Shown: positions 16,871 through 47,852, counted from the stretch's first letter. The stretch is DNA of 64,000 nt from Comamonas sp. (GCA_040396175.1 JBEBOZ010000005.1:20265-84264); one strand, 5' to 3'. Numbers and translations: made by a program. The notes: generated by a model from the letters alone, not told the origin.

Positions 16871-17587
16871 TCAGTGGGGGCGCATCTTGGTGCGCAGTCT
16901 GGCAATGGCCTGGCTGTGCAGCTGGCAGACGCGGGACTCGGTGACTTCCAGCACGGCGGCAATCTCCTTGAGATTCATGTCGTGCTCGTAGTACATGCCC
17001 ATCACGTACTTCTCGCGCTCCGGCAGGCCTTCGATGGCTTGCACCAGAGCGGTGCGCAGCCGGTGGTCGCGCAGCATGGCCATGGGGTCACTGCTGCTGT
17101 CGGCCACATAGCGGTCCAGATAGCCTTCGTCGTCGTCCTGTCCGGGGGACAGGTCTTCCAGGTAGAACAGCTGCGTGCCGCGCACCTTGCCCAGCAGGCT
17201 CTGGTACTCGTCCAGCGGCAGGTCCATGGCTTCGGCGATTTCAGACTCGCGTGGCGTGCGGCCCAGCCGCTGCTCCAGGCGGCGGATGGTGACTTCGATG
17301 TCTTTCTGCCCTTTGCGCGAGCTGCGGCTCATCCAGTCGCTCTCGCGCAGTTCGTCGAGCATGGCGCCGCGGATGCGCTGGCTGGCAAAGGTCTCGAATT
17401 GCACGCCCTGGGCACTTTCGTAGCGCGACAACGCTTCGGCCAGACCGATCATGCCCACCTGGATCAGATCGTCCAGTTCCACGTTCGGAGGCAGCTTGGC
17501 GATCATATGGTGCGCAATACGACGCACCAGCGGGGCGTGCTGGCGGATCAGCGCGTCACGATCAAGCTGGCCATGGGCGGTGTACAT
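16871..17587 (-). CDS. fliA: Flagellar sigma factor sigma-28
   Basis: LDDLIQVGMIGL, RIRGAMLDELR, VTESRVCQLHSQA. Confidence 0.97.
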   Translation of the reverse strand: MYTAHGQLDRDALIRQHAPLVRRIAHHMIAKLPPNVELDDLIQVGMIGLAEALSRYESAQGVQFETFASQRIRGAMLDELRESDWMSRSSRKGQKDIEVTIRRLEQRLGRTPRESEIAEAMDLPLDEYQSLLGKVRGTQLFYLEDLSPGQDDDEGYLDRYVADSSSDPMAMLRDHRLRTALVQAIEGLPEREKYVMGMYYEHDMNLKEIAAVLEVTESRVCQLHSQAIARLRTKMRPH

Positions 17588-17591
17588 CGGG

Positions 17592-18347
17592 TCAATGGCT
17601 CCAATCGGTAGGCTGGGCGGCGGCCTGCTGCGGCATTCCTACCGCTTCGGCTTGCTCCAAGCATTGTAGCGACCAGCGCTGCAGTTGCCGGGGGTTATCA
17701 GGGTTCAGTTGCATGACGAGAGGCTCGACATGCAGGTGGTGCATGGCGCACTGCACCACGGCCTGCAGATTGCGGGCGAAACCCGTGTCCGGCGACATGG
17801 AAACCAGCTTGGCGGTCAGTCCGGTATGCATCAGCATGTGCTTGAGCGCGCGGTAGCTGCGCAGCACGCTGCGGCCCTGGGAGGGCACCATCAGCAGCGG
17901 GGACTGGCTGGCGCCGTGCAGCACCGGGCTCAGAATCTGTTCCGGGGCAATGATGATGACCAGCGCATGGTTGCGCAAGTGGCGGTGCAGCAGGTCCAGG
18001 GCGCGGCAGCCTTGCTGGCGGGCACGGTGGGCCAGTTGCAGCAGGCCGCGGGCGGCCGGCAGGGTGGCCACGCTGTGTGCGCCTTCGGTGCCCACGGGCA
18101 GGGCGCCAAAGCCGCTGCCGCTATGGGGCTGCAGCAGATCCTGCAGGCCCGGCGCATCGGCCGTTTCCTGCTCGGTGCCATCCAGCACGATGACCGGATA
18201 GCCTTGTTGTTGCAGATGGGTGCAGGCGCTCCACAGGGCCTGGGTGCCTGCCAGATCCCCACCGGGCAGCACGCTCAGCACGCGCAGCGGGTTGGCCGCA
18301 GCCTGCCATTGCAGGCCGGAACCTTGGTGGCTGCTGCTCTCAAGCAT
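17592..18347 (-). CDS. Degenerate FlhG/FleN (MinD-like) protein
   Basis: Lies between flhF and fliA; retains QGYPVIVLDG and SYRALKHM segments but no KGGxGK Walker A. Confidence 0.6.
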   Translation of the reverse strand: MLESSSHQGSGLQWQAAANPLRVLSVLPGGDLAGTQALWSACTHLQQQGYPVIVLDGTEQETADAPGLQDLLQPHSGSGFGALPVGTEGAHSVATLPAARGLLQLAHRARQQGCRALDLLHRHLRNHALVIIIAPEQILSPVLHGASQSPLLMVPSQGRSVLRSYRALKHMLMHTGLTAKLVSMSPDTGFARNLQAVVQCAMHHLHVEPLVMQLNPDNPRQLQRWSLQCLEQAEAVGMPQQAAAQPTDWSH

Positions 18348-19809
18348 GCAGGCCTCCTGCGGAGCGGGGCGACTCTGCAAAGAAGAAGTCCAGATCCAGG
18401 GCCGATGGGTCGAAGGCCGAACGGGTGTGGGCGCGCATCGACGAGGCGATCAGTTCCTGGGCGTTGGCGCGCTCGAAGTCTTCGGGCACACGCTGGCCGT
18501 TGGTGATGCCGCGCAGCTGCATCTGGTGGCGCACCAGAGCGTCCAGGGCTGGACCCAGCTTCACGGCCTCGTCCACCTTGGACAGGATGGTCTGCTTGCA
18601 GCCATTGCGCTTGAAGGCACCCAGCGATTCGTCCAGCGTATCGCCCTGGCTGCCGGCGTTGACCACCAGCAGGCGTTGCACGCCAGGCAGGTCCAGCACG
18701 TCCAGGATGTCGTCCTTGCGCGGATCGCGCGGGGCTACACCGGTGGTGTCGATCAGGACCATCTTCTTGCCGGACAGCAGGCTCAGCAGGTCTTGCAGCG
18801 CGGCCTTGTCATGGGCCAGGTGGGCCACCACACCCAGCATGCGGCCGTAGGCACGCAGCTGTTCGTGGCCGCCGACGCGGTAGGTGTCCAGCGTGATCAG
18901 GCCAACATTGTGGGCGCCGTGGACCTGCGCAGCCAGGGCGGCCAGCTTGGCGGCCGTGGTGGTCTTGCCCACGCCGGTGGAACCCACGAGGGCGAACACG
19001 CCACCGGTTTCGTAGATGGAGGCCTGCTTGGCGTCGGTGTGCAGATTGCGTTCCAGCACGTTCATCAGCCACTTCAGGGCTTCGGCCGGGCCGGCGTTCT
19101 GGGGCATGCGCTCCAGCAGGGTGCGGCCCAGCGCGGGCGAGTAGCCGGCGCGGATCAGCTTGACCATCAGGTTCGAGTGCAGCGGGCTCTGGCGCGTCTG
19201 GTTCAGCCACGACAGGGTGTTGAAGCGCTCTTCAATCAGGTCCTTCATAGACTGCAGCTCACCCATCACCTGGGTGTTCAGTGCAGGGGCGGCCGGGGCG
19301 GGCTTGCGCGTCTCGACCGGCAGTTCAATGGCCATGCCGCGCAGCGGGTTGTGCTTGACCACCGTGGGGGTGGTGGGCAGCGGTGCGGTGTCGCGCACGG
19401 CATCCAGACGGTTCTTGCGGGCAAAAGTGGGCAGTGCCGGCACTTCTTCTTCCATCTGGGCATCGGGGCCACGGCGGCGCAGCATGCGTTCGCGCACATA
19501 GTCCTGGAAGGACAGGGTGCTCATGCTCAGCTGTTCGGTATCTTCTGCCACGGACTGCTTGGCCGAGGCCTGCAGCGCCTTGGGGGGGCGGGTTTCATCG
19601 GCATCGCGCGCCTGGATGGCTGCCTGCAGGCGGTTGCTGGTGCGGTTGCCTTGGTCCAGCTTGCCCAGACCGTCTTCCGACGTGGCCATGACTTCCACGC
19701 CGGTGGAGGTGGCGCGGTTGGCAAGGATCAGTGTGCCTTCCCCAAAGACGGCCCGCGCTTTGGCCAGGGCCTCACGGGAGGTGGGGGCGGTAAAGCGTTG
19801 GATGTTCAT
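18340..19809 (-). CDS. flhF: SRP-family GTPase FlhF
   Basis: GSTGVGKTTTAAKLA, DTYRVGGHEQL, DTTG, SKVDE, GQRVPED. Confidence 0.96.
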   Translation of the reverse strand: MNIQRFTAPTSREALAKARAVFGEGTLILANRATSTGVEVMATSEDGLGKLDQGNRTSNRLQAAIQARDADETRPPKALQASAKQSVAEDTEQLSMSTLSFQDYVRERMLRRRGPDAQMEEEVPALPTFARKNRLDAVRDTAPLPTTPTVVKHNPLRGMAIELPVETRKPAPAAPALNTQVMGELQSMKDLIEERFNTLSWLNQTRQSPLHSNLMVKLIRAGYSPALGRTLLERMPQNAGPAEALKWLMNVLERNLHTDAKQASIYETGGVFALVGSTGVGKTTTAAKLAALAAQVHGAHNVGLITLDTYRVGGHEQLRAYGRMLGVVAHLAHDKAALQDLLSLLSGKKMVLIDTTGVAPRDPRKDDILDVLDLPGVQRLLVVNAGSQGDTLDESLGAFKRNGCKQTILSKVDEAVKLGPALDALVRHQMQLRGITNGQRVPEDFERANAQELIASSMRAHTRSAFDPSALDLDFFFAESPRSAGGLHA

Positions 19810-21902
19810 GCGGATGCACCTTTAAGAATGGGACCAATGCGGATGGTGTGCGTTTCGGGGATCTCGCTGTGGGCGAGCACCTGCAGTCGAGGAGCGACAC
19901 GGCGCACCAACTTGGCAATGGTGTTGCGAATGGAGTCTGGAACCAGCAGGCAGGCGGGCATGCCCATTTCTTCCTGGCGGTTGGCCACTTCGGCGGCGCG
20001 CTGGGTCAGGACGTCGGCGACGCCGGGGTCCAGCGAGGGCGCTGCGGGGTTGGCCAGGGCCTGAACCAGCAGGCGTTCCAGGCCGGGCTCGATGGCGATC
20101 ACGTTCAGTTCGCGGGTCGGGCCGTAAATTTGTTGGACGATGGCGGGCGACAGCGCAATGCGCACGCGGCGGGCCAGTTCCATGGGGTCCTGGGTCGAGC
20201 CTGCATGCTCGGCCAGCGTTTCGATGATGGTGCGGATGTCACGGATGTGCACCGAGTCCTCCAGCAGCAGCTGGAGCACTTTTTGGAACGTCGTGATGGA
20301 CACCATTTTGGGAATGACTTCTTCGATCAGCTTGGGTGCCAACTTGGCAACATGCTCCACCAGCTGCTGCACCTCAGTGCGGCTGAGCAGCTTGGAAGCC
20401 TGGACTTGCATCAAGTGTGACAAATGCGTCGCCATCACAGTTTCCGAATCAACGACCGTAAAACCAGCCATTTGCGCCGCTTCCTTCTGGCGCTCATCGA
20501 TCCAGTGGGCCGGCAGTCCGAAAGCGGGGTCGGTGGTGGGGGTTCCGATCAGCGGCGTGCTGATGCCACCCGGGTTGATGGCCAAGTACATGCCGGGGAA
20601 GGCTTCGCCTTCGCCCACCATCACGCCGCGCAGGGTGATGCGGTAGGCGCTGGGCTTGAGCTCCAGGTTGTCGCGCACATGCACGGCCGGGGGCAGAAAG
20701 CCCACTTCCTGTGCGAACTTGCGGCGCACGCCCTTGATGCGGGTCAGCAGGTCGCCCTGGCGGCCCTTGTCCACCAGGGTGATCAGGCGGTAGCCCAGCT
20801 CCAGGCCCAGCAGGTCCACGGGCTGCAGGTCGTCCCAGGTGGCTTCGCCGTCGCTGGGCGCGGCCACGGGTGCGGGCGCCTGGGCCTGCTGGGAGGCGCG
20901 CTCCTGCTGGCGGCGCGAGAGCATCCAGGCCAGCCAGCCCAGCAGCGCGCCCGTGCACAGGAAAACGACGTGCGGCATGCCCGGAATGACGCCCAGCAGG
21001 CCCAGCACGCCGGCCGTGATGCCCAGTACCTTGGGCGACATGAACAGCTGCTGCGCGATCTGCTGGCCCATGTCGGTTTCCTTGCCCACGCGCGAGATCA
21101 CCATGGCCGCGGCCACCGAGATCAGCAGGCCGGGGATCTGCGCGACCAGCGCATCGCCCACGGCCAGCAGGATGTAGCTGTCGGCGGCCTGGCCGGCCGA
21201 CAGGCCGTGCTGGATCATGCCGATGGCGAAGCCGCCGATGATGTTGATCACCAGGATCAGGATGCCGGCGACCGCGTCGCCGCGCACGAACTTGCTGGCA
21301 CCGTCCATGGAGCCGAAGAAATTGGCCTCTTCCTGCACCTCGGCGCGGCGGCGCTTGGCTTCCTTTTCGTCGATCAGGCCGGCGTTCAGGTCGGCATCCA
21401 CGGCCATCTGCTTGCCGGGCATGGCGTCCAGGGTGAAGCGGGCCGAGACTTCGGCGATACGCTCGGCACCCTTGGTGATCACCACGAAGTTGATCACCAC
21501 CAGGATGGCGAACACGATCAGACCCACGGCAAAGTTGCCACCGATCAGGAAGTGGCCGAAGGCCTCGATCACCGCACCCGCCGCGCCGGGGCCGGTATGT
21601 CCTTCCATCAGCACCACCCGGGTGGAGGCTACGTTCAGCGACAGGCGCATCAGGGTGGTCAGCAGCAGCACCGAAGGGAAGGCCGCAAAGTCCAGTGGCT
21701 TGATCATGTAGGCCGCCACCATCATCACCATCAATGCAATGGCGATGTTCAGCGTGAAGAAGGTGTCCAGCAACCAGGGTGGAATGGGCAGCACCATCAG
21801 CGCCAGGATGGCAATGACCAGAATCGGGGCCGACATGCCCTGCAGCGCACTGCCATGCTTGCCTGCCATCTGCTGGATGTTCTTGATCATTGCGGAGCTC
21901 AT
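19806..21902 (-). CDS. flhA: Export gate protein FlhA
   Basis: AEVSARFTLDAMPGKQMAVDADL, GSMDGASKFVRGD. Confidence 0.98.
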   Translation of the reverse strand: MSSAMIKNIQQMAGKHGSALQGMSAPILVIAILALMVLPIPPWLLDTFFTLNIAIALMVMMVAAYMIKPLDFAAFPSVLLLTTLMRLSLNVASTRVVLMEGHTGPGAAGAVIEAFGHFLIGGNFAVGLIVFAILVVINFVVITKGAERIAEVSARFTLDAMPGKQMAVDADLNAGLIDEKEAKRRRAEVQEEANFFGSMDGASKFVRGDAVAGILILVINIIGGFAIGMIQHGLSAGQAADSYILLAVGDALVAQIPGLLISVAAAMVISRVGKETDMGQQIAQQLFMSPKVLGITAGVLGLLGVIPGMPHVVFLCTGALLGWLAWMLSRRQQERASQQAQAPAPVAAPSDGEATWDDLQPVDLLGLELGYRLITLVDKGRQGDLLTRIKGVRRKFAQEVGFLPPAVHVRDNLELKPSAYRITLRGVMVGEGEAFPGMYLAINPGGISTPLIGTPTTDPAFGLPAHWIDERQKEAAQMAGFTVVDSETVMATHLSHLMQVQASKLLSRTEVQQLVEHVAKLAPKLIEEVIPKMVSITTFQKVLQLLLEDSVHIRDIRTIIETLAEHAGSTQDPMELARRVRIALSPAIVQQIYGPTRELNVIAIEPGLERLLVQALANPAAPSLDPGVADVLTQRAAEVANRQEEMGMPACLLVPDSIRNTIAKLVRRVAPRLQVLAHSEIPETHTIRIGPILKGASA

Positions 21903-23071
21903 GGTGCGGTGCTTTCCGTGGTGGATTCAGGGGCGGTGCGCAGCTTGGTGTGCGGGTCCAATTCAGGCGGGACTGGCGGTTGCACCAGTTCGCCCGGGGG
22001 CGGGGCTTCGCCGCGCAGCGAGGCCTTGAGACGGTAGACATAGGCCAGCACCTGGGCCACGGCGGTGTACAGCGTGGACGGGATGGCTTGGTCGAGTTCG
22101 GCGTTGGCGTAGAGCGCACGGGCCAGCATGGGCGATTCGAGCACTGGAATGTCGTGGGCCTTGGCCACTTCGCGGATCTTCAGTGCCACCAGATCGGCTC
22201 CCATGGCGATCACCTGGGGGGCGGCCATGGTGGCTTCGTCGTAGCGCAGGGCCACGGCGTAGTGGGTGGGGTTGGTGACCACGAAGTCGGCCTTGGGCAC
22301 GCGGGAGACGGAAGCGCGGTGTGCCATTTCACGCTGTTTCTGGCGGATCTTGCCCTTGACTTCAGGGCTGCCTTCGGATTCCTTGTGTTCCTGCTTGACT
22401 TCCTGGTGGCTCATCTTCAGGCGGCGCTTGAACAGGAAGTTTTGCAGCGGCACATCGATGATGGCGACCATGAAGACCACCACCAGCATCAAGGCCATGC
22501 CGCCGGCAATCCAGTCGCCCACCTTGGACAGCGCCGAGCGGCTGGGCTGCAGGGGCAGGGTGGCCAGTTCGGGAATGCCGGAGCGCAGATAGAACCAGCC
22601 CACGAAGGCCAGCACGATGGTCAGCAGCACATTCTTGGCGGCCGTGACCAACTGCTGCATGGACACCAGGTTCTTGATGCCTGACAGCGGGTTGATGCGG
22701 TTGAATTGGGGGGTGATGGGTTTGAAGCTGAGCACCCAGCCACCGGCCAGCACGCCAGAAATGATGGAGGCGGCCGAAATCAGCACCCCCAGAATCAGCA
22801 CGGCCGTCAGAGCCAGGATGGACATGTCCACCAGGCGTTCCACCATCAGCTGGGGCGACAGGATGGTGCTGGCGTTGAACGACAGCTGGCGCGCCATGGC
22901 TTCGTGCATGTGGCCGACCAGTGAAGGCCCGCCAGCCAGGACCGCCAGCGCGCCGACGCCCATCACCGTCAGGTGACCGAGGTCGCGGGAGCGTGCAGCC
23001 TGACCGTCTTTGCGGGTCTTCTGCAGTTTTCGCTCGGTAGCGGGTAGGTTTTTGTCTTGGCTGGATTCCAT
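21899..23071 (-). CDS. flhB: Export switch protein FlhB
   Basis: NPTH autocleavage motif, EVKQEHKESEGSPEVK. Confidence 0.97.
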   Translation of the reverse strand: MESSQDKNLPATERKLQKTRKDGQAARSRDLGHLTVMGVGALAVLAGGPSLVGHMHEAMARQLSFNASTILSPQLMVERLVDMSILALTAVLILGVLISAASIISGVLAGGWVLSFKPITPQFNRINPLSGIKNLVSMQQLVTAAKNVLLTIVLAFVGWFYLRSGIPELATLPLQPSRSALSKVGDWIAGGMALMLVVVFMVAIIDVPLQNFLFKRRLKMSHQEVKQEHKESEGSPEVKGKIRQKQREMAHRASVSRVPKADFVVTNPTHYAVALRYDEATMAAPQVIAMGADLVALKIREVAKAHDIPVLESPMLARALYANAELDQAIPSTLYTAVAQVLAYVYRLKASLRGEAPPPGELVQPPVPPELDPHTKLRTAPESTTESTAP

Positions 23072-23096
23072 GGCGGCATGGGGGAATGTCCATGCC

Positions 23097-23157
23097 ATTG
23101 TCCGCAGCGGTGTCTGCGGCGATGCCGTGAAAAGCGGGGTCGGGGGCGCGTTATTCC
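23097..23157 (-). promoter_or_regulatory. Class-2 promoter of the flhB operon
   Basis: Minus strand GGAATAA-N17-TTTTCAC-N24-GACAAT. Confidence 0.65.
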
Positions 23158-26506: not shown

Positions 26507-28162
26507 ATGACAACGCTTGATCAAGCTGTGGTTGCTTCCGAGCCGGTGCCGGCCCTCTCCCATGCGCTGCATGACATCAATGTCAGGCTGGTAGGGCAGA
26601 ACAAGTTCCTGCCGGCGCTGACCGAGCTCATGTGCCTGGCCAAGGACCATGTGATGAGCGCCAACCTGTGGGTATTGATCGGCGTGGTGTACGCACGGAT
26701 GTCGAATTGGTCGGCTGCCATCGGGGCGCTGGAAACGGCCATTGCGCTGGATGAGCGGGCGCAAGGCGCACACCAGCTGATGGCACTGTCGGTGTTCAGC
26801 ATTGGCCGGCGCGAACAAGCCTGTCAGATGGTGGATGAGGCGTGCAAGCGCTCTTCGGAAAACAACGCCTGGCTGCTGCGTGCCTATATCCATGCCCACT
26901 CCTCCCGCAGCCCGGAGGTGGCGCTGAAGGTGGCTCAGGACTGGGGACGCCGTTTTGCCGATCCGCTCACTCGCAAGGCCAAGCCCCTGGTCGTTGGGGA
27001 TCGGAATCCCCGGAAAAAACTAAAAATCGGTTACGTCACAGCCGATTTTCGGGAGCATTCGGTAGCGTTCTTTATGTTGCCGGTACTGAAATTTCATAAT
27101 CAGGATGAGTATGAAATTCATGTGTACTCGAATGGACCATGGGACCATTACACGCCGCAGCTGCGTATGCATGTGCAGTACTGGGAAGATGTTATCGGGC
27201 TTTCCGATAAGGACCTTCATCAGAAAATCCGGGATGATCAAATCGATGTGCTGGTTGATTTGTCTGGTTTCACGCACGGCCACAGACTGGGCGTCTTTGC
27301 ACAAAGAGCGGCACCTGTGCAGGTGACGTGGGTGGGGTATATGCAGACCTTGGGTATGAAGGCCATGGATTATCGTCTGGTGGACAATGGGGTCGCACCG
27401 CCCAGCCATGCACCTTATTATTCCGAAGCGCTATTCCAGATGCCGTTTTCAGGGTGTTATGCCCCTCCCGTGTATGCACCGTTGTGTGAGACGTTGCCGA
27501 TGGAGCGCAACGGCTATCCGACGCTGGTTTCACCGAACAGCTCTGCAAAGATCACAGACGAAATGCTGGCGGTATGGTCCAAGATCCTTCATGCACGCGA
27601 AGATGCCCGGCTGATCATCTTGGTCAAGGAGCTGGATGCCGATGCCGCTCAGGCTGACATGCAGCCCCGTGTAGAGGCTGCTGGAATGCCGTTGGACCGT
27701 GTTTTTGTGATGCAGCAGCAGCCTTTGAACAATTTCATGGAGCTGGGTCACATTGCCGACATCATGCTGGATACCGCTCCTATGTCGGGAGGTACCACGG
27801 TTTTCCATGCGCTGTGGATGGGACTGACGGTGGTCTCCATGGATGCAGAGCGCGGGGTGGATGTCGTGGCGGCCCGTATTTTGCGAACGGTCGGGGCTGA
27901 TGCGGAAATCACGCGCAACACCGATGAATATATACAGGCGGTTTTGGATTTGATGAATGATCCGGAGCGATTGTTGCGCCAGCGTCTGGGTGCGCGCGAG
28001 CAAATGCAGAACTGCGGGTATATGAATTTCGCAGAACGAACTGCGGACGTGGAGAAATCCTTCCGCCTGATGTGGATCAACTGGCTGCGCGGCAATAAAA
28101 AAATCCTGGATACGCAAGTTGATATGGATGCCTTGTTGCAGGAAATGGAGCCAGCGCTATGA
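26507..28162 (+). CDS. TPR-containing GT41 (O-GlcNAc transferase/SPINDLY-like) glycosyltransferase, probable flagellin glycosyltransferase
   Basis: KIGYVTADFREHSV, IDVLVDLSGFT, APVQVTWVGY, LDTAPMSGGTT; N-terminal TPR-like helices. Confidence 0.88.
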   Translation: MTTLDQAVVASEPVPALSHALHDINVRLVGQNKFLPALTELMCLAKDHVMSANLWVLIGVVYARMSNWSAAIGALETAIALDERAQGAHQLMALSVFSIGRREQACQMVDEACKRSSENNAWLLRAYIHAHSSRSPEVALKVAQDWGRRFADPLTRKAKPLVVGDRNPRKKLKIGYVTADFREHSVAFFMLPVLKFHNQDEYEIHVYSNGPWDHYTPQLRMHVQYWEDVIGLSDKDLHQKIRDDQIDVLVDLSGFTHGHRLGVFAQRAAPVQVTWVGYMQTLGMKAMDYRLVDNGVAPPSHAPYYSEALFQMPFSGCYAPPVYAPLCETLPMERNGYPTLVSPNSSAKITDEMLAVWSKILHAREDARLIILVKELDADAAQADMQPRVEAAGMPLDRVFVMQQQPLNNFMELGHIADIMLDTAPMSGGTTVFHALWMGLTVVSMDAERGVDVVAARILRTVGADAEITRNTDEYIQAVLDLMNDPERLLRQRLGAREQMQNCGYMNFAERTADVEKSFRLMWINWLRGNKKILDTQVDMDALLQEMEPAL

Positions 28163-29358
28163 AAACAGATACGGCGCAGGAATTGGAGCGGATTCCATTA
28201 TTGGTTCCGGACATTCCGGCACCGCAGTATTTATTGCCTTGGCTGGAAAAAGTGCATGCCGCACGGCATTATTCCAATTTCGGCCCTTTGGTGTGTGAGC
28301 TGGAATCCCGCTTTGCGCAACAGTTTGCGCTTCCGCAGACCCACATCACCACCGTGGCCAATGCCACTCTGGGTCTGGAACTGGTGCTGCAAGCGCTCGC
28401 GTTGGCGCCGGGGTCACGCATACTGGTGCCTGCATTCACTTTCGTGGCCACGGCCACTGCCGTGTTGCGTGCGGGCCATATTCCTGTGCTGGCCGATGTG
28501 GATGCACACAGTTGGCTGCTGACGCCGGATATCGCGCGCCAGGCGTGCGTGGGCCGGCAACTCGATGCAGTGCTTGCCGTCGCCACGTTTGGCATGCCGC
28601 ACGATATGCAGGCGTGGCAGCAGTTTGAAGAGGAAACCGGCATTCCCGTGGTGATTGATGCCGCCGCCGCTTACGGCAGCCAATGGTTGCAAGGGGCACA
28701 GGGGACACTGGTTTTCAGCTTGCACGCCACCAAAAGCCTGCCCGCCATCGAGGGCGGGGTCGTGGTTTCTTCCCGTCCGGGATTGGCCGCCAAGGTGCGG
28801 CAGTTGTCCAACTTCGGTATCAATCTGGATGCGGGTTCCGGCCTGCCTTTGGGCTCCCTGTCTGCCACCGGCACCAACGCCAAGATGAGCGAATACCACG
28901 CCGCCGTGTGTCTGGCATCGCTTCAGATCTGGGATCGACGTTCGCTCCAGCGAAAAGCGTTGTATGCCGATTTGGTAGCGGAAATGGACCGCGCCACAGG
29001 GGGGCTGCTGGGTTGGCAGAAACCGGGGGCGGCGGGCGGCATACAGGCGCCTACCCTGCTGTGCGCGCAGTTCCCCGATGAAGCGGCACGCAATCAGGCA
29101 GAGCAAGGGCTAGCCCAGGCCCACATCACCACCCGGCGCTGGTACCAGCCTTTGCTCAGCGACATGGCGGTGCTGCAACAACGTTGCGAGATCTTGGCGG
29201 TTCCCAATGCGCAGAAGCTGTCTCGCACTTTGCTGGGGCTGCCCTTTTTTATGGACATCGCACCGGCGCAGAGGGCACGGGTAGCAGAGGCATTGGCGAG
29301 CTCCGGGCGGCAAGAGGACCTGAAGGAAGCGCCGTCGTTGGCGACTGTTGCGCTCTAG
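28159..29358 (+). CDS. DegT/DnrJ/EryC1/StrS sugar aminotransferase
   Basis: NFGPLV, PAFTFVAT, DAAAAYG, FSLHATKSL, GTNAKMSEYHAA; ATGA overlap with the GT gene. Confidence 0.92.
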   Translation: MKTDTAQELERIPLLVPDIPAPQYLLPWLEKVHAARHYSNFGPLVCELESRFAQQFALPQTHITTVANATLGLELVLQALALAPGSRILVPAFTFVATATAVLRAGHIPVLADVDAHSWLLTPDIARQACVGRQLDAVLAVATFGMPHDMQAWQQFEEETGIPVVIDAAAAYGSQWLQGAQGTLVFSLHATKSLPAIEGGVVVSSRPGLAAKVRQLSNFGINLDAGSGLPLGSLSATGTNAKMSEYHAAVCLASLQIWDRRSLQRKALYADLVAEMDRATGGLLGWQKPGAAGGIQAPTLLCAQFPDEAARNQAEQGLAQAHITTRRWYQPLLSDMAVLQQRCEILAVPNAQKLSRTLLGLPFFMDIAPAQRARVAEALASSGRQEDLKEAPSLATVAL

Positions 29359-36582: not shown

Positions 36583-36609
36583 TAAAGAAATTTCCAGGGA
36601 GCCCGATAA
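36583..36609 (+). promoter_or_regulatory. Sigma-28 promoter of flagellin 2
   Basis: TAAA-N15-CCCGATAA. Confidence 0.9.
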
Positions 36610-46453: not shown

Positions 46454-47852
46454 CACCGATATGCCCGTGGCCGATCAGCTGCAGCAATTCTTGCGCTTGG
46501 GCAGCGAACGGTTGCGCCAGCCAGTGCCGCTGCACAGCCACGGAACGCTCACCCGCCTGACGGGCCTGGTGCTGGAAGCGTCGGGCCTGCGCGTGCCGGT
46601 GGGTTCGCAATGCCATCTGCAGATGCCGGGGCAGGAGCCGGTGCTGGCCGAGGTGGTGGGTTTTGCGGGCGACCGCGCCTTTCTGATGCCGGCGGGGGAT
46701 ATCCAGGGCTTGTCTTGCGGTGCGACCGTGACACCGGCCGAGCCCTATGTGCCGCCGTTGCAGCTGGGCGATACCGAAGTGCCGGTGCTGACCAAAGGCG
46801 TGCTGCGGCTGCCCATGGGAGATGGCCTGCTGGGGCGGGTGGTGGATTCGCAAGGCGTTCCGCTGGACCATGCCGGCCCGCTGGCGAATGTGCAGGCCGA
46901 GACCCTGGACCGCGAACCCATCAATGCCATGGAGCGTGCCCCTGTGCGCGAAAGCCTGGACACCGGTGTGCGGGCCATCAACGCCTTGCTGACCGTGGGG
47001 CGTGGGCAGCGTCTGGGTCTGTTCGCGGGTTCTGGCGTCGGCAAATCGGTGCTGCTGGGCATGATGGCCCGCTATACCAAGGCCGATGTCATCGTGGTGG
47101 GCCTGATCGGCGAACGGGGCCGCGAAGTCAAGGAATTCGTGGAAGATATTCTGGGGGCGCAGGACCGCTCGCGCGCCGTGGTGGTGGCAGCGCCGGCCGA
47201 TGCGCCGCCGCTGCTGCGCATGCAGGGCGCCAATTACGCCACTGCCATTGCCGAGCATTTCCGCGACAAGGGCCAGCATGTGCTGCTGCTGATGGATTCG
47301 CTCACGCGTTACGCCCAGGCGCAGCGCGAGATCGCCTTGGCGATTGGCGAACCACCGGCCACCAAGGGCTATCCGCCGTCGTGTTTTGCCAAGCTGCCCG
47401 GCCTGGTGGAGCGCAGCGGCAACGGCCTGCATGGCGTGGGCTCGATCACGGCGTTCTATACCGTGCTGTCCGAAGGCGACGACCAGCAGGATCCCATTGC
47501 CGATGCGTCGCGCGCCATTCTGGACGGGCACTTTGTGCTGTCGCGTGCGCTGGCGGAGCAGGGGCATTACCCGGCCATCGACATCGAGCAATCCGCGTCG
47601 CGGGTCATGCACAACGTGGTCACGCGTGAGCACTTCGACCTAGCTAGGCGGTTTAGGGCTGTCTATTCCTGCTATCAAAAGAGTAGGGATTTGATACAAG
47701 TAGGGGCTTATATGAGTGGCTCCGATCCCGCAGTGGATGAAGCCATTCGGCTGCAGCCCTCCATGGTGCAGTTCCTGCAGCAAACCATGTTTGAGGCGGC
47801 GCCCATGGAACAGAGTCTGTTGGACATGGCTGCGGTCCTGGAACAGCAGTGA
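46443..47852 (+). CDS. fliI: Export ATPase FliI
   Basis: [28 protein letters not shown]. Confidence 0.97.

Follow-up and report, generated by a model that had tools for sequence, protein, structure and literature searches.

Embedded in the coding sequence of flhA, within a stretch of 64,000 nucleotides (nt) from Comamonas sp. (GCA_040396175.1 JBEBOZ010000005.1:20265-84264; henceforth the window, from whose first letter all coordinates are counted), lies an element which we read, with a probability of roughly 0.75, as an FlhDC-type sigma-70 promoter for flhF, an flhG-like gene and fliA. Namely, codons 474-499 of flhA would, apart from encoding protein, make up an activator-dependent sigma-70 promoter of the kind seen at seven intergenic sites of the window, consisting of a two-part inverted-repeat box like that of FlhD4C2 and, after 25-26 bases, an extended -10 region (TGTCACACT). 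The match to this signature is present inside the gene, its silent sites are constrained among orthologues, it is spread widely over the family, and its occurrence is coupled to the overlap of flhA with flhF. That the activator would be FlhDC, that the site would fire and that transcription would start at 20407 are predictions made from the sequence.

An earlier note on this DNA had described three boxes inside flhA, and these were recovered with the very geometry it gave: on the minus strand, GCAAATG occupies 20475-20469, TGATTCG 20451-20445 and CACACT 20419-20414, with spacers of 17 and 25 bases. The three fall within flhA codons 476-497, the finding as a whole spanning codons 476-500. The patch is AT-rich, as had been noticed, with a local GC content of 0.53-0.55 against approximately 0.66 for flhA, and the distance of about 600 nt to flhF is likewise borne out, the -10 box lying 605 nt upstream of the flhF start (19809). 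As for the boxes themselves, the weak point of their earlier description is the distal one, given that GCAAATG agrees with GGAATAA at only 3 of 7 positions; it reads better shifted by two bases, as AAATGGC against AAATAGC. The parts of the element, as we delimit them, are the following:

20466-20481, minus strand: distal half of the putative FlhDC box (AGCGGCGC AAATGGCT), containing GCAAATG
20445-20454, minus strand: proximal half-site (CGTTGATTCG), containing TGATTCG
20414-20424, minus strand: extended -10 region, TTTGT followed by CACACT (20419-20414), with TG at -15/-14 (20422-20421)
20406-20426, minus strand: invariant block CAT TTG TCA CAC TTG ATG CAA, codons 493-499
20406-20407, minus strand: predicted transcription start, the AA of codon CAA 499, 7-8 nt past the -10 hexamer

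The distal half matches the E. coli half-site AAYGSSNNAAATAGCG (PMC9962212) at 11 of its 14 specified positions and, when anchored on the -10, aligns unshifted with AAATAGC/GAATAAC of the flhB promoters. It is followed after 11 bases (the E. coli rule being N10-12) by the proximal half-site, whose TTGATTC shares six of seven positions with the TTTATTC of the fliL and fliE promoters. Taken by their inner parts, the two half-sites agree with the FlhDC box at 6 of 8 and 5 of 8 positions, such that AAATGGCT-N11-CGTTGATT matches AAATAGCG-N10-12-CGCTATTT at 11 of 16 positions with the correct spacing, the distal half being weak and less conserved. A sigma-70 -10 element stands at a fixed distance below the box, with no good -35: the proximal half-site is 25-26 bases from the -10, the same as in fliE and fliF and compared with 24-26 in the seven intergenic promoters. 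CACACT itself shares 5 of 6 positions with CATACT of the fliF promoter. It is because of the position of this hexamer that the start is predicted near 20407, and the codon concerned, CAA 499, is retained in 35 of 38 orthologues. The string TCACACTTGATGCA occurs once in the genome.

The signature against which the element was measured comes from the window itself. The training set comprised its seven intergenic promoters, namely those of fliF, fliE, fliL, flhB, flagellin 1, flgB and motA, with the internal site excluded. Each of the seven has a proximal box like TTATTCC and, 24-26 bases further on, a hexamer that fits xAxxxT. The reference example is the following:

23097-23157, minus strand: intergenic flhB promoter, with a footprint across 35 relatives

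In these 35 relatives, the footprint consists of the inverted repeat AATA(A/G)GC and GCTT(A/T)TC, its arms 13-14 bases apart, and, about 25 bases further, the -10 GACAAT. The E. coli FlhD4C2 box has a similar inner part, AAATAGCG-N10-12-CGCTATTT (PMC9962212), and calling the signature an "FlhDC class 2" type is a reasonable inference from the likeness of the motifs. At the same locus we observed that the flhB open reading frame (ORF) is listed as starting at 23098, a position that overlaps with the -10 GACAAT, itself conserved, and that the conserved N-terminal sequence MESSQDK begins at approximately 23062 (23062-23103 of the window, minus strand). A start at approximately 23062 leaves a leader of about 35 nt, in which many relatives have a conserved palindrome, GGCATG...CATGCC.

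With a matrix trained on the seven promoters, the internal site scores 17.5 bits, which lies inside the leave-one-out range of the real promoters (11.0-23.8 bits). It ranks 9th among the 128,000 positions of the window, behind the seven training sites and a palindrome at 28245, and 11th among the untrained positions of the genome (8.95 million positions in 4.49 Mb). The number of sites expected by chance at this score is approximately 0.16 per window and 0.003 in the sense strand of flhA, and the adjoining registers all remain below 3.1 bits. What is more, 20,000 column-permuted matrices gave a maximum of 13.7 bits and never reached the score of the internal site, and the match is therefore specific to the register and not only a matter of AT-richness. 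In the reverse orientation there is a box-like score and no -10, the box part alone reaching 12.0 and 14.6 bits in the two orientations. Codon choice points in the same direction. When residues 476-500 were recoded synonymously according to flhA usage, with the amino acids fixed, the score fell to -2.8 +/- 4.5 bits, and 17.45 bits was reached once in 200,000 recodings (p ~5e-6). Two simpler searches were silent on the matter: a literal consensus search with 3 mismatches gave 3 matches as opposed to 6.8 expected, which is uninformative either way, and a generic scan for sigma-70 promoters and terminators returned nothing at the site and no -35/-10 pair.

Two further places in the window deserve mention in connection with the matrix. 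A near-perfect inverted repeat, GGAATAATGC...GCATTATTCC at 28245-28305, scores 18.5 and 15.0 bits on its two strands. The DegT-type aminotransferase ORF in which it sits (28159-29358) begins, as listed, approximately 86 nt before it, and a GT41 glycosyltransferase lies alongside. The repeat may be another such box, with genes of flagellin glycosylation under its control, or else the true start of the ORF may lie downstream of the listed one. As for the AT-rich patch with which fliI ends (47640-47720), and which had been flagged as holding a class-2 half-site, it is not among the 40 best matches of the window, all of which exceed 8.8 bits, and by the matrix measure it is not a site of the same kind.

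Independently of any matrix, the element coincides with the strongest silent-site constraint in flhA. Synonymous conservation, which the earlier note had named as a way of checking its proposal, was assessed in a codon alignment of 38 orthologues from several genera with at least 80% identity, and the outcome was positive. Codons 493-498 (CAT TTG TCA CAC TTG ATG) are invariant, and no other run in flhA reaches four such codons; codons 493-497 show no silent change whatsoever, and codons 493-500 are the segment of lowest silent diversity, 0.08 against a mean of 0.32. On the tree, degenerate codons change approximately 5 times on average and 31 of 495 never change; 9 of these 31 lie within codons 474-497. 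In particular, if CACACT is anchored as the -10, the frozen silent positions are -11A, -7T, -8, the TG at -15/-14, positions -17/-16, the proximal box (GTT GAT) and the distal box (CAA), while the third positions of the spacers change 3-15 times. The -11A is supplied by the rare codon TCA (4.9% of Ser) and the -7T by TTG (11% of Leu) in place of CTG. Within the proximal box, GTT (5% of Val) and GAT are rare codons without silent change, and CAA codon 477 of the distal box shows no silent change in the 38 orthologues either; CAT, GAT and CAA each account for about 29% of the usage for their residues. The search for conserved RNA structure extended to alifold, which found essentially none at codons 480-530, with an energy of approximately -1 against -10 to -22 elsewhere in the gene. 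What is expected of a "duon" is seen here, inasmuch as the site lies inside coding sequence and the silent constraint falls on the positions informative for a promoter.

How far the element extends over the phylogeny can be judged from the scores at the orthologous position. These are 14.9-22.3 bits for close orthologues (at least 80% identity), 14.4-17.2 bits for a group at about 70% identity (Pelomonas, Rubrivivax) and -19.5 to +8.1 bits for all more distant FlhA (Burkholderia, Cupriavidus, Bordetella, Pseudomonas and others). Among 151 sampled genomes, each from a different genus of the family, of which approximately 95 have an FlhA at least 68% identical to that of the window, the pattern GTTGATTS-N19-CAYYTNTCACACTTGATGCA is exact in 79 genera, the reversed control pattern being found in none. 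TCACACTTGATGCA is exact in 79 genera as well, as is GTTGATT, and the 19 spacer bases vary freely among the 79 matches. The window itself belongs to a member of the Comamonadaceae, its nearest named FlhA relatives being Comamonas and Acidovorax, with 86-88% amino-acid identity. One record titled Pantoea sp. 18069 (L006, NZ_CACSJA010000036.1) carries a Comamonas-type flhA locus and falls within the genus of the window on the FlhA tree, and the assembly behind it is probably mislabelled or mixed. A second gene of the FlhA/SctV family, 43% identical to flhA, was seen elsewhere in the same genome as the window (contig C29:2598-4622), and several congeners have one too; it is a candidate component of a further flagellar or type III system.

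An indication of what the element serves comes from the order of the genes. On the minus strand, the window reads motA, motB, cheZ, flhB, flhA, flhF, a gene in the position of flhG, and fliA, of which the following are of concern here:

21899-23098, minus strand: flhB ORF as listed
19806-21902, minus strand: flhA, host of the element (TIGR01398 FlhA, E = 1e-257)
18340-19809, minus strand: flhF, presumed target (NCBIfam FlhF)
17592-18380, minus strand: gene in the flhG position, presumed target
16871-17587, minus strand: fliA, presumed target (NCBIfam FliA)
16871-19809, minus strand: presumed target block of flhF, the flhG-position gene and fliA

The flhA stop is overlapped over 4 nt by the flhF start (ATGA). 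In turn, flhF, the flhG-position gene and fliA overlap or abut one another, with no room for promoters of their own. The flhG-position gene (17592-18380, minus strand) has no Pfam or NCBIfam match and reaches only 24-35% identity with its positional counterpart in relatives where FliA is 70-78% identical; either it evolves very fast or it is not a MinD-type protein.

In all 48 of 48 element-bearing loci, flhF overlaps flhA by 4 nt or follows it within 2 nt, the 4-nt overlap being present in 45; in one degraded case they are 62 nt apart. From flhA codon 300 to flhF, these loci contain no matrix match of at least 9 bits other than the internal site, and in the window the interval from the element to flhF is free of any sigma-28 or sigma-54 consensus. 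The 16 orthologous loci without the exact pattern consist of six near-versions (for example, one in which a Ser-to-Pro change turns GTTGATT into GTTGATC) and ten losses. In the ten, the residues V-V-D and H-L-S-H-L-M-Q remain, written in the common codons GTG GAC and CAC CTG TCG CAC CTG ATG CAG, and the scores are -4.7 to -11.8 bits. In three of them, flhA is followed by unrelated genes (a TPP enzyme; a TctC receptor; Nramp with GntR), and in four, flhF is separated from flhA by 267-1532 nt. All four gaps hold a site of 19.2-28.4 bits (TTATC..CTTAAGT..AACAAT), located 35-170 nt upstream of flhF. The promoters in these gaps (loci L136, L138, L140 and L143) share a tight consensus, namely TTATC, 2 bases, CTTAAGT, about 15 bases and AACAAT(G), and at L140 a solute-binding-protein gene is inserted on the opposite strand between flhA and flhF.

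The association of the element with gene order gives a Fisher p = 3e-6, a value that overstates the significance because the relatives are not independent; on a quick FlhA tree, where the outgroups lack the element, the state has to change independently at least 3 times, the parsimony count running up to 7. In this family, flhF would thus normally have a promoter of this type to itself. Conservation across species is, in this way, tied to a downstream gene without a promoter of its own, as one would expect of a "duon". It appears that the promoter for flhF occupies the spacer if the two genes are separated by one, and is otherwise placed within flhA.

The mechanism we propose is as follows. 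An activator, presumably FlhD4C2, would bind the box at approximately 20445-20481 and recruit sigma-70 RNA polymerase to the extended -10 at 20414-20424, with transcription starting near 20407/20406 on the minus strand. The transcript would cross the last 200 codons of flhA (its last third) as a leader of about 600 nt and continue into flhF, the flhG-position gene and fliA. In this manner, the regulators of flagellar placement and number, together with sigma-28, would receive an early-class input on top of the read-through from the flhB promoter. The earlier note had proposed a dual-coding element driving flhF, flhG and fliA separately, and this proposal has gained comparative support along three independent lines, namely silent-site conservation, codon tuning (p ~5e-6) and the tracking of the flhF overlap, with an intergenic promoter of the type taking over at loci with a gap. 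Its alternative suggestion, that a C-terminal FlhA fragment or a regulatory RNA is produced, has gained none. The first conserved in-frame ATG is M533, preceded by only a weak GAAGAAG, and does not make a convincing internal translation start. As far as transcripts are concerned, one RNA contig of a relative ends near 20404 and none lies on 19131-20403, at low depth, from more than one strain and in contigs, which are by nature unable to show starts or ends, and no conclusion follows from it. No start-site dataset for Comamonadaceae was found in the literature.

Several other identities were considered for the site and set aside. A sigma-54 reading of TGTCACACTTGATGCA lacks the GG at -24 (GT is found there, and TC or CT in the 70%-identity group), and the sigma-54 consensus TGGCAC-N5-TTGC has no match in the window. 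Sigma-28 has its only match in the window at 36583 (flagellin 2). A CRP-like TGTGA-N14-TCACA lacks both the right spacing and conservation, and the 6-bp palindrome CACTTG-ATG-CAAGTG is lost where codon 500 varies.

A number of observations weigh against reading the element as a promoter for flhF, the flhG-like gene and fliA. In particular, the intergenic flhF promoters have leaders of 35-170 nt, next to which one of about 600 nt is long; the -10 hexamer agrees with the consensus at 3 of 6 positions; and the distal half, a moderate match, is the weakest and least conserved of the boxes, with CAG for CAA in two of five members of the 70%-identity group. Three of the ten loss loci (L132, L134 and L144) keep the flhA-flhF overlap without the element or any other matrix match and manage without it, and the element is therefore dispensable. 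The training sites were picked with a pattern that the internal site also satisfies, an effect absorbed by the genome-wide null distribution. What is more, the other high matches in the genome are mostly terminator-like or lie beside non-flagellar genes (an ABC transporter gene, an rmlB-type gene, an unknown gene), and they do not bear the matrix out beyond the flagellar cluster; the matrix is therefore not highly specific. Finally, a search of the organism's own assembly, at 82% completeness, did not turn up flhDC (PF05247, PF05280). Across the genus, FlhC is present in 32 of 40 genomes, and the genomes without FlhC largely coincide with those in which no flhA was found.

Would the same observations arise if the site were bound but never gave rise to a transcript? 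Acting here as a roadblock or an attenuator, the master regulator or another protein could determine how much flhF-fliA is transcribed relative to flhBA, or the site could be an auxiliary operator working with the flhB promoter. The box part alone does score well in both orientations, and in E. coli there are FlhDC sites inside genes without detectable regulation (PMC4183435; PMC9962212). We nevertheless regard such a role as quite improbable, seeing that the most frozen part is the -10/extended -10 block and not the box, that the element as a whole is orientation-specific, and that a complete promoter before flhF takes over where a gap exists. One can also argue that the constraint acts on the RNA or on translation, the region serving as a single-stranded target for a small RNA or an RNase that uncouples the stability of the flhF-fliA mRNA, or else as a rare-codon pause in the synthesis of FlhA. 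The frozen codons are indeed nearly all rare, the region is unusually free of conserved secondary structure, and once flhF has moved elsewhere, an RNA element linked to it would no longer be needed either. We consider this explanation unlikely as well. It accounts neither for the register-specific match to a DNA matrix, so seldom reproduced by recoding and never by permuted matrices, nor for the fact that the rare synonyms TTA, TCT and GTA, although permitted, never appear. As to a pause, lineages that have lost the element encode the same residues with common codons, and there is therefore no general folding requirement.

Chance resemblance, laid over the ordinary codon conservation of a conserved protein segment, could be invoked on the grounds that the literal consensus search is not enriched and that approximately ten other untrained sites in the genome score as high. 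Given how few matches of this score are expected in the window, and fewer still in the sense strand of flhA, we find it hardly credible. The site is, independently, the place of the gene's strongest silent-site constraint, it is kept in 79 genera with variable spacers, and it is lost along with the flhA-flhF overlap.

If the element is the proposed promoter, it may also have left its mark on the protein. The residues M478, F481, S495 and M498 are specific to the clade, other Betaproteobacteria having A/V, Y, N and I/L, respectively, and they are kept in the lineages that have lost the element; their persistence after the loss suggests that the promoter has left a lasting imprint on the protein. 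In an extended form of this idea, which we find unlikely, the embedded promoter would have shaped FlhA, with these four residues fixed for the sake of the box and the -10 and surviving as a fossil after its loss, and, in addition, the 600-nt flhA leader would be a regulatory 5' untranslated region or would code for a C-terminal FlhA fragment, thereby tuning FlhF and FliA.

Should an early-class promoter embedded in flhA prove true, it would explain a direct input of the master regulator to sigma-28 and to the regulators of placement and number, in a family whose fliA, flhF and flhG-position gene leave nowhere for promoters of their own. The element would then be an unusually clean bacterial case of overlapping protein and regulatory codes, in which the natural variants that arose after flhF had separated would be ready-made null alleles, and it could serve as a model for how intragenic regulatory DNA constrains the evolution of a gene. 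On the practical side, insertions in the distal third of flhA, or codon optimisation there, may be polar on the regulation of fliA.

Promoters of related kinds are known. In Pseudomonas putida, where the precedent is closest, an internal flhA promoter, PflhF, drives flhF-fleN-fliA (Navarrete et al. 2019, PMC6424431). As is proposed for the present element, it is a sense promoter inside flhA which adds transcription of flhF, flhG/fleN and fliA above that of the operon promoter and responds to an early flagellar regulator. PflhF differs in being a sigma-54 promoter (TGGAACA-N4-TTGCT), dependent on FleQ and FleN and situated at -298 to -284 relative to flhF (PMC6424431), whereas the element described here combines a sigma-70 -10 with an FlhDC-like box, approximately 605 nt from flhF and at a non-homologous place in the gene; deep silent-site conservation is not reported in the PflhF paper (PMC6424431). 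The two may thus be regarded as functionally analogous, the present element not being a member of the sigma-54 promoter class. Burkholderia glumae co-transcribes flhBAFG and fliA, and its flhF depends on FlhDC (PMC3885665), which fits read-through transcription plus an internal boost. A conserved sigma-28 promoter of motA lies inside flhC in E. coli and its relatives and constrains its host gene (Fitzgerald et al., bioRxiv 10.1101/188474; PMC4183435), but it belongs to the late class, resides in another gene and is near the gene it serves, whereas the element in flhA would be of the early, activator-dependent type and acts, if it does, from far upstream. Also in E. coli, an FlhDC site inside csgC, upstream of the ymdA start (PMC4183435), is alike in being a bound site in coding sequence beside the start of a downstream gene; its target is non-flagellar, and neither conservation nor constraint is reported for it in PMC4183435. 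With the FlhD4C2 class 2 promoters of E. coli and Salmonella (FlhDC box AAYGSSNNAAATAGCG-N10-12-CGCTATTTNNSSCRTT; PMC9962212) the element shares a sigma-70 -10 without a recognisable -35 and, if our reading is correct, two inverted half-sites 11 bases apart and the placing of fliA under direct early-class control. The enteric promoters, in contrast, are intergenic and fliA, which belongs to class 2 there, has its own, while here a putative FlhDC box is written in codons. In sum, an internal flhA promoter for flhF-fliA, and a dual-coding promoter more generally, are of a known kind, and what would be new is its deeply conserved FlhDC/sigma-70-type form.

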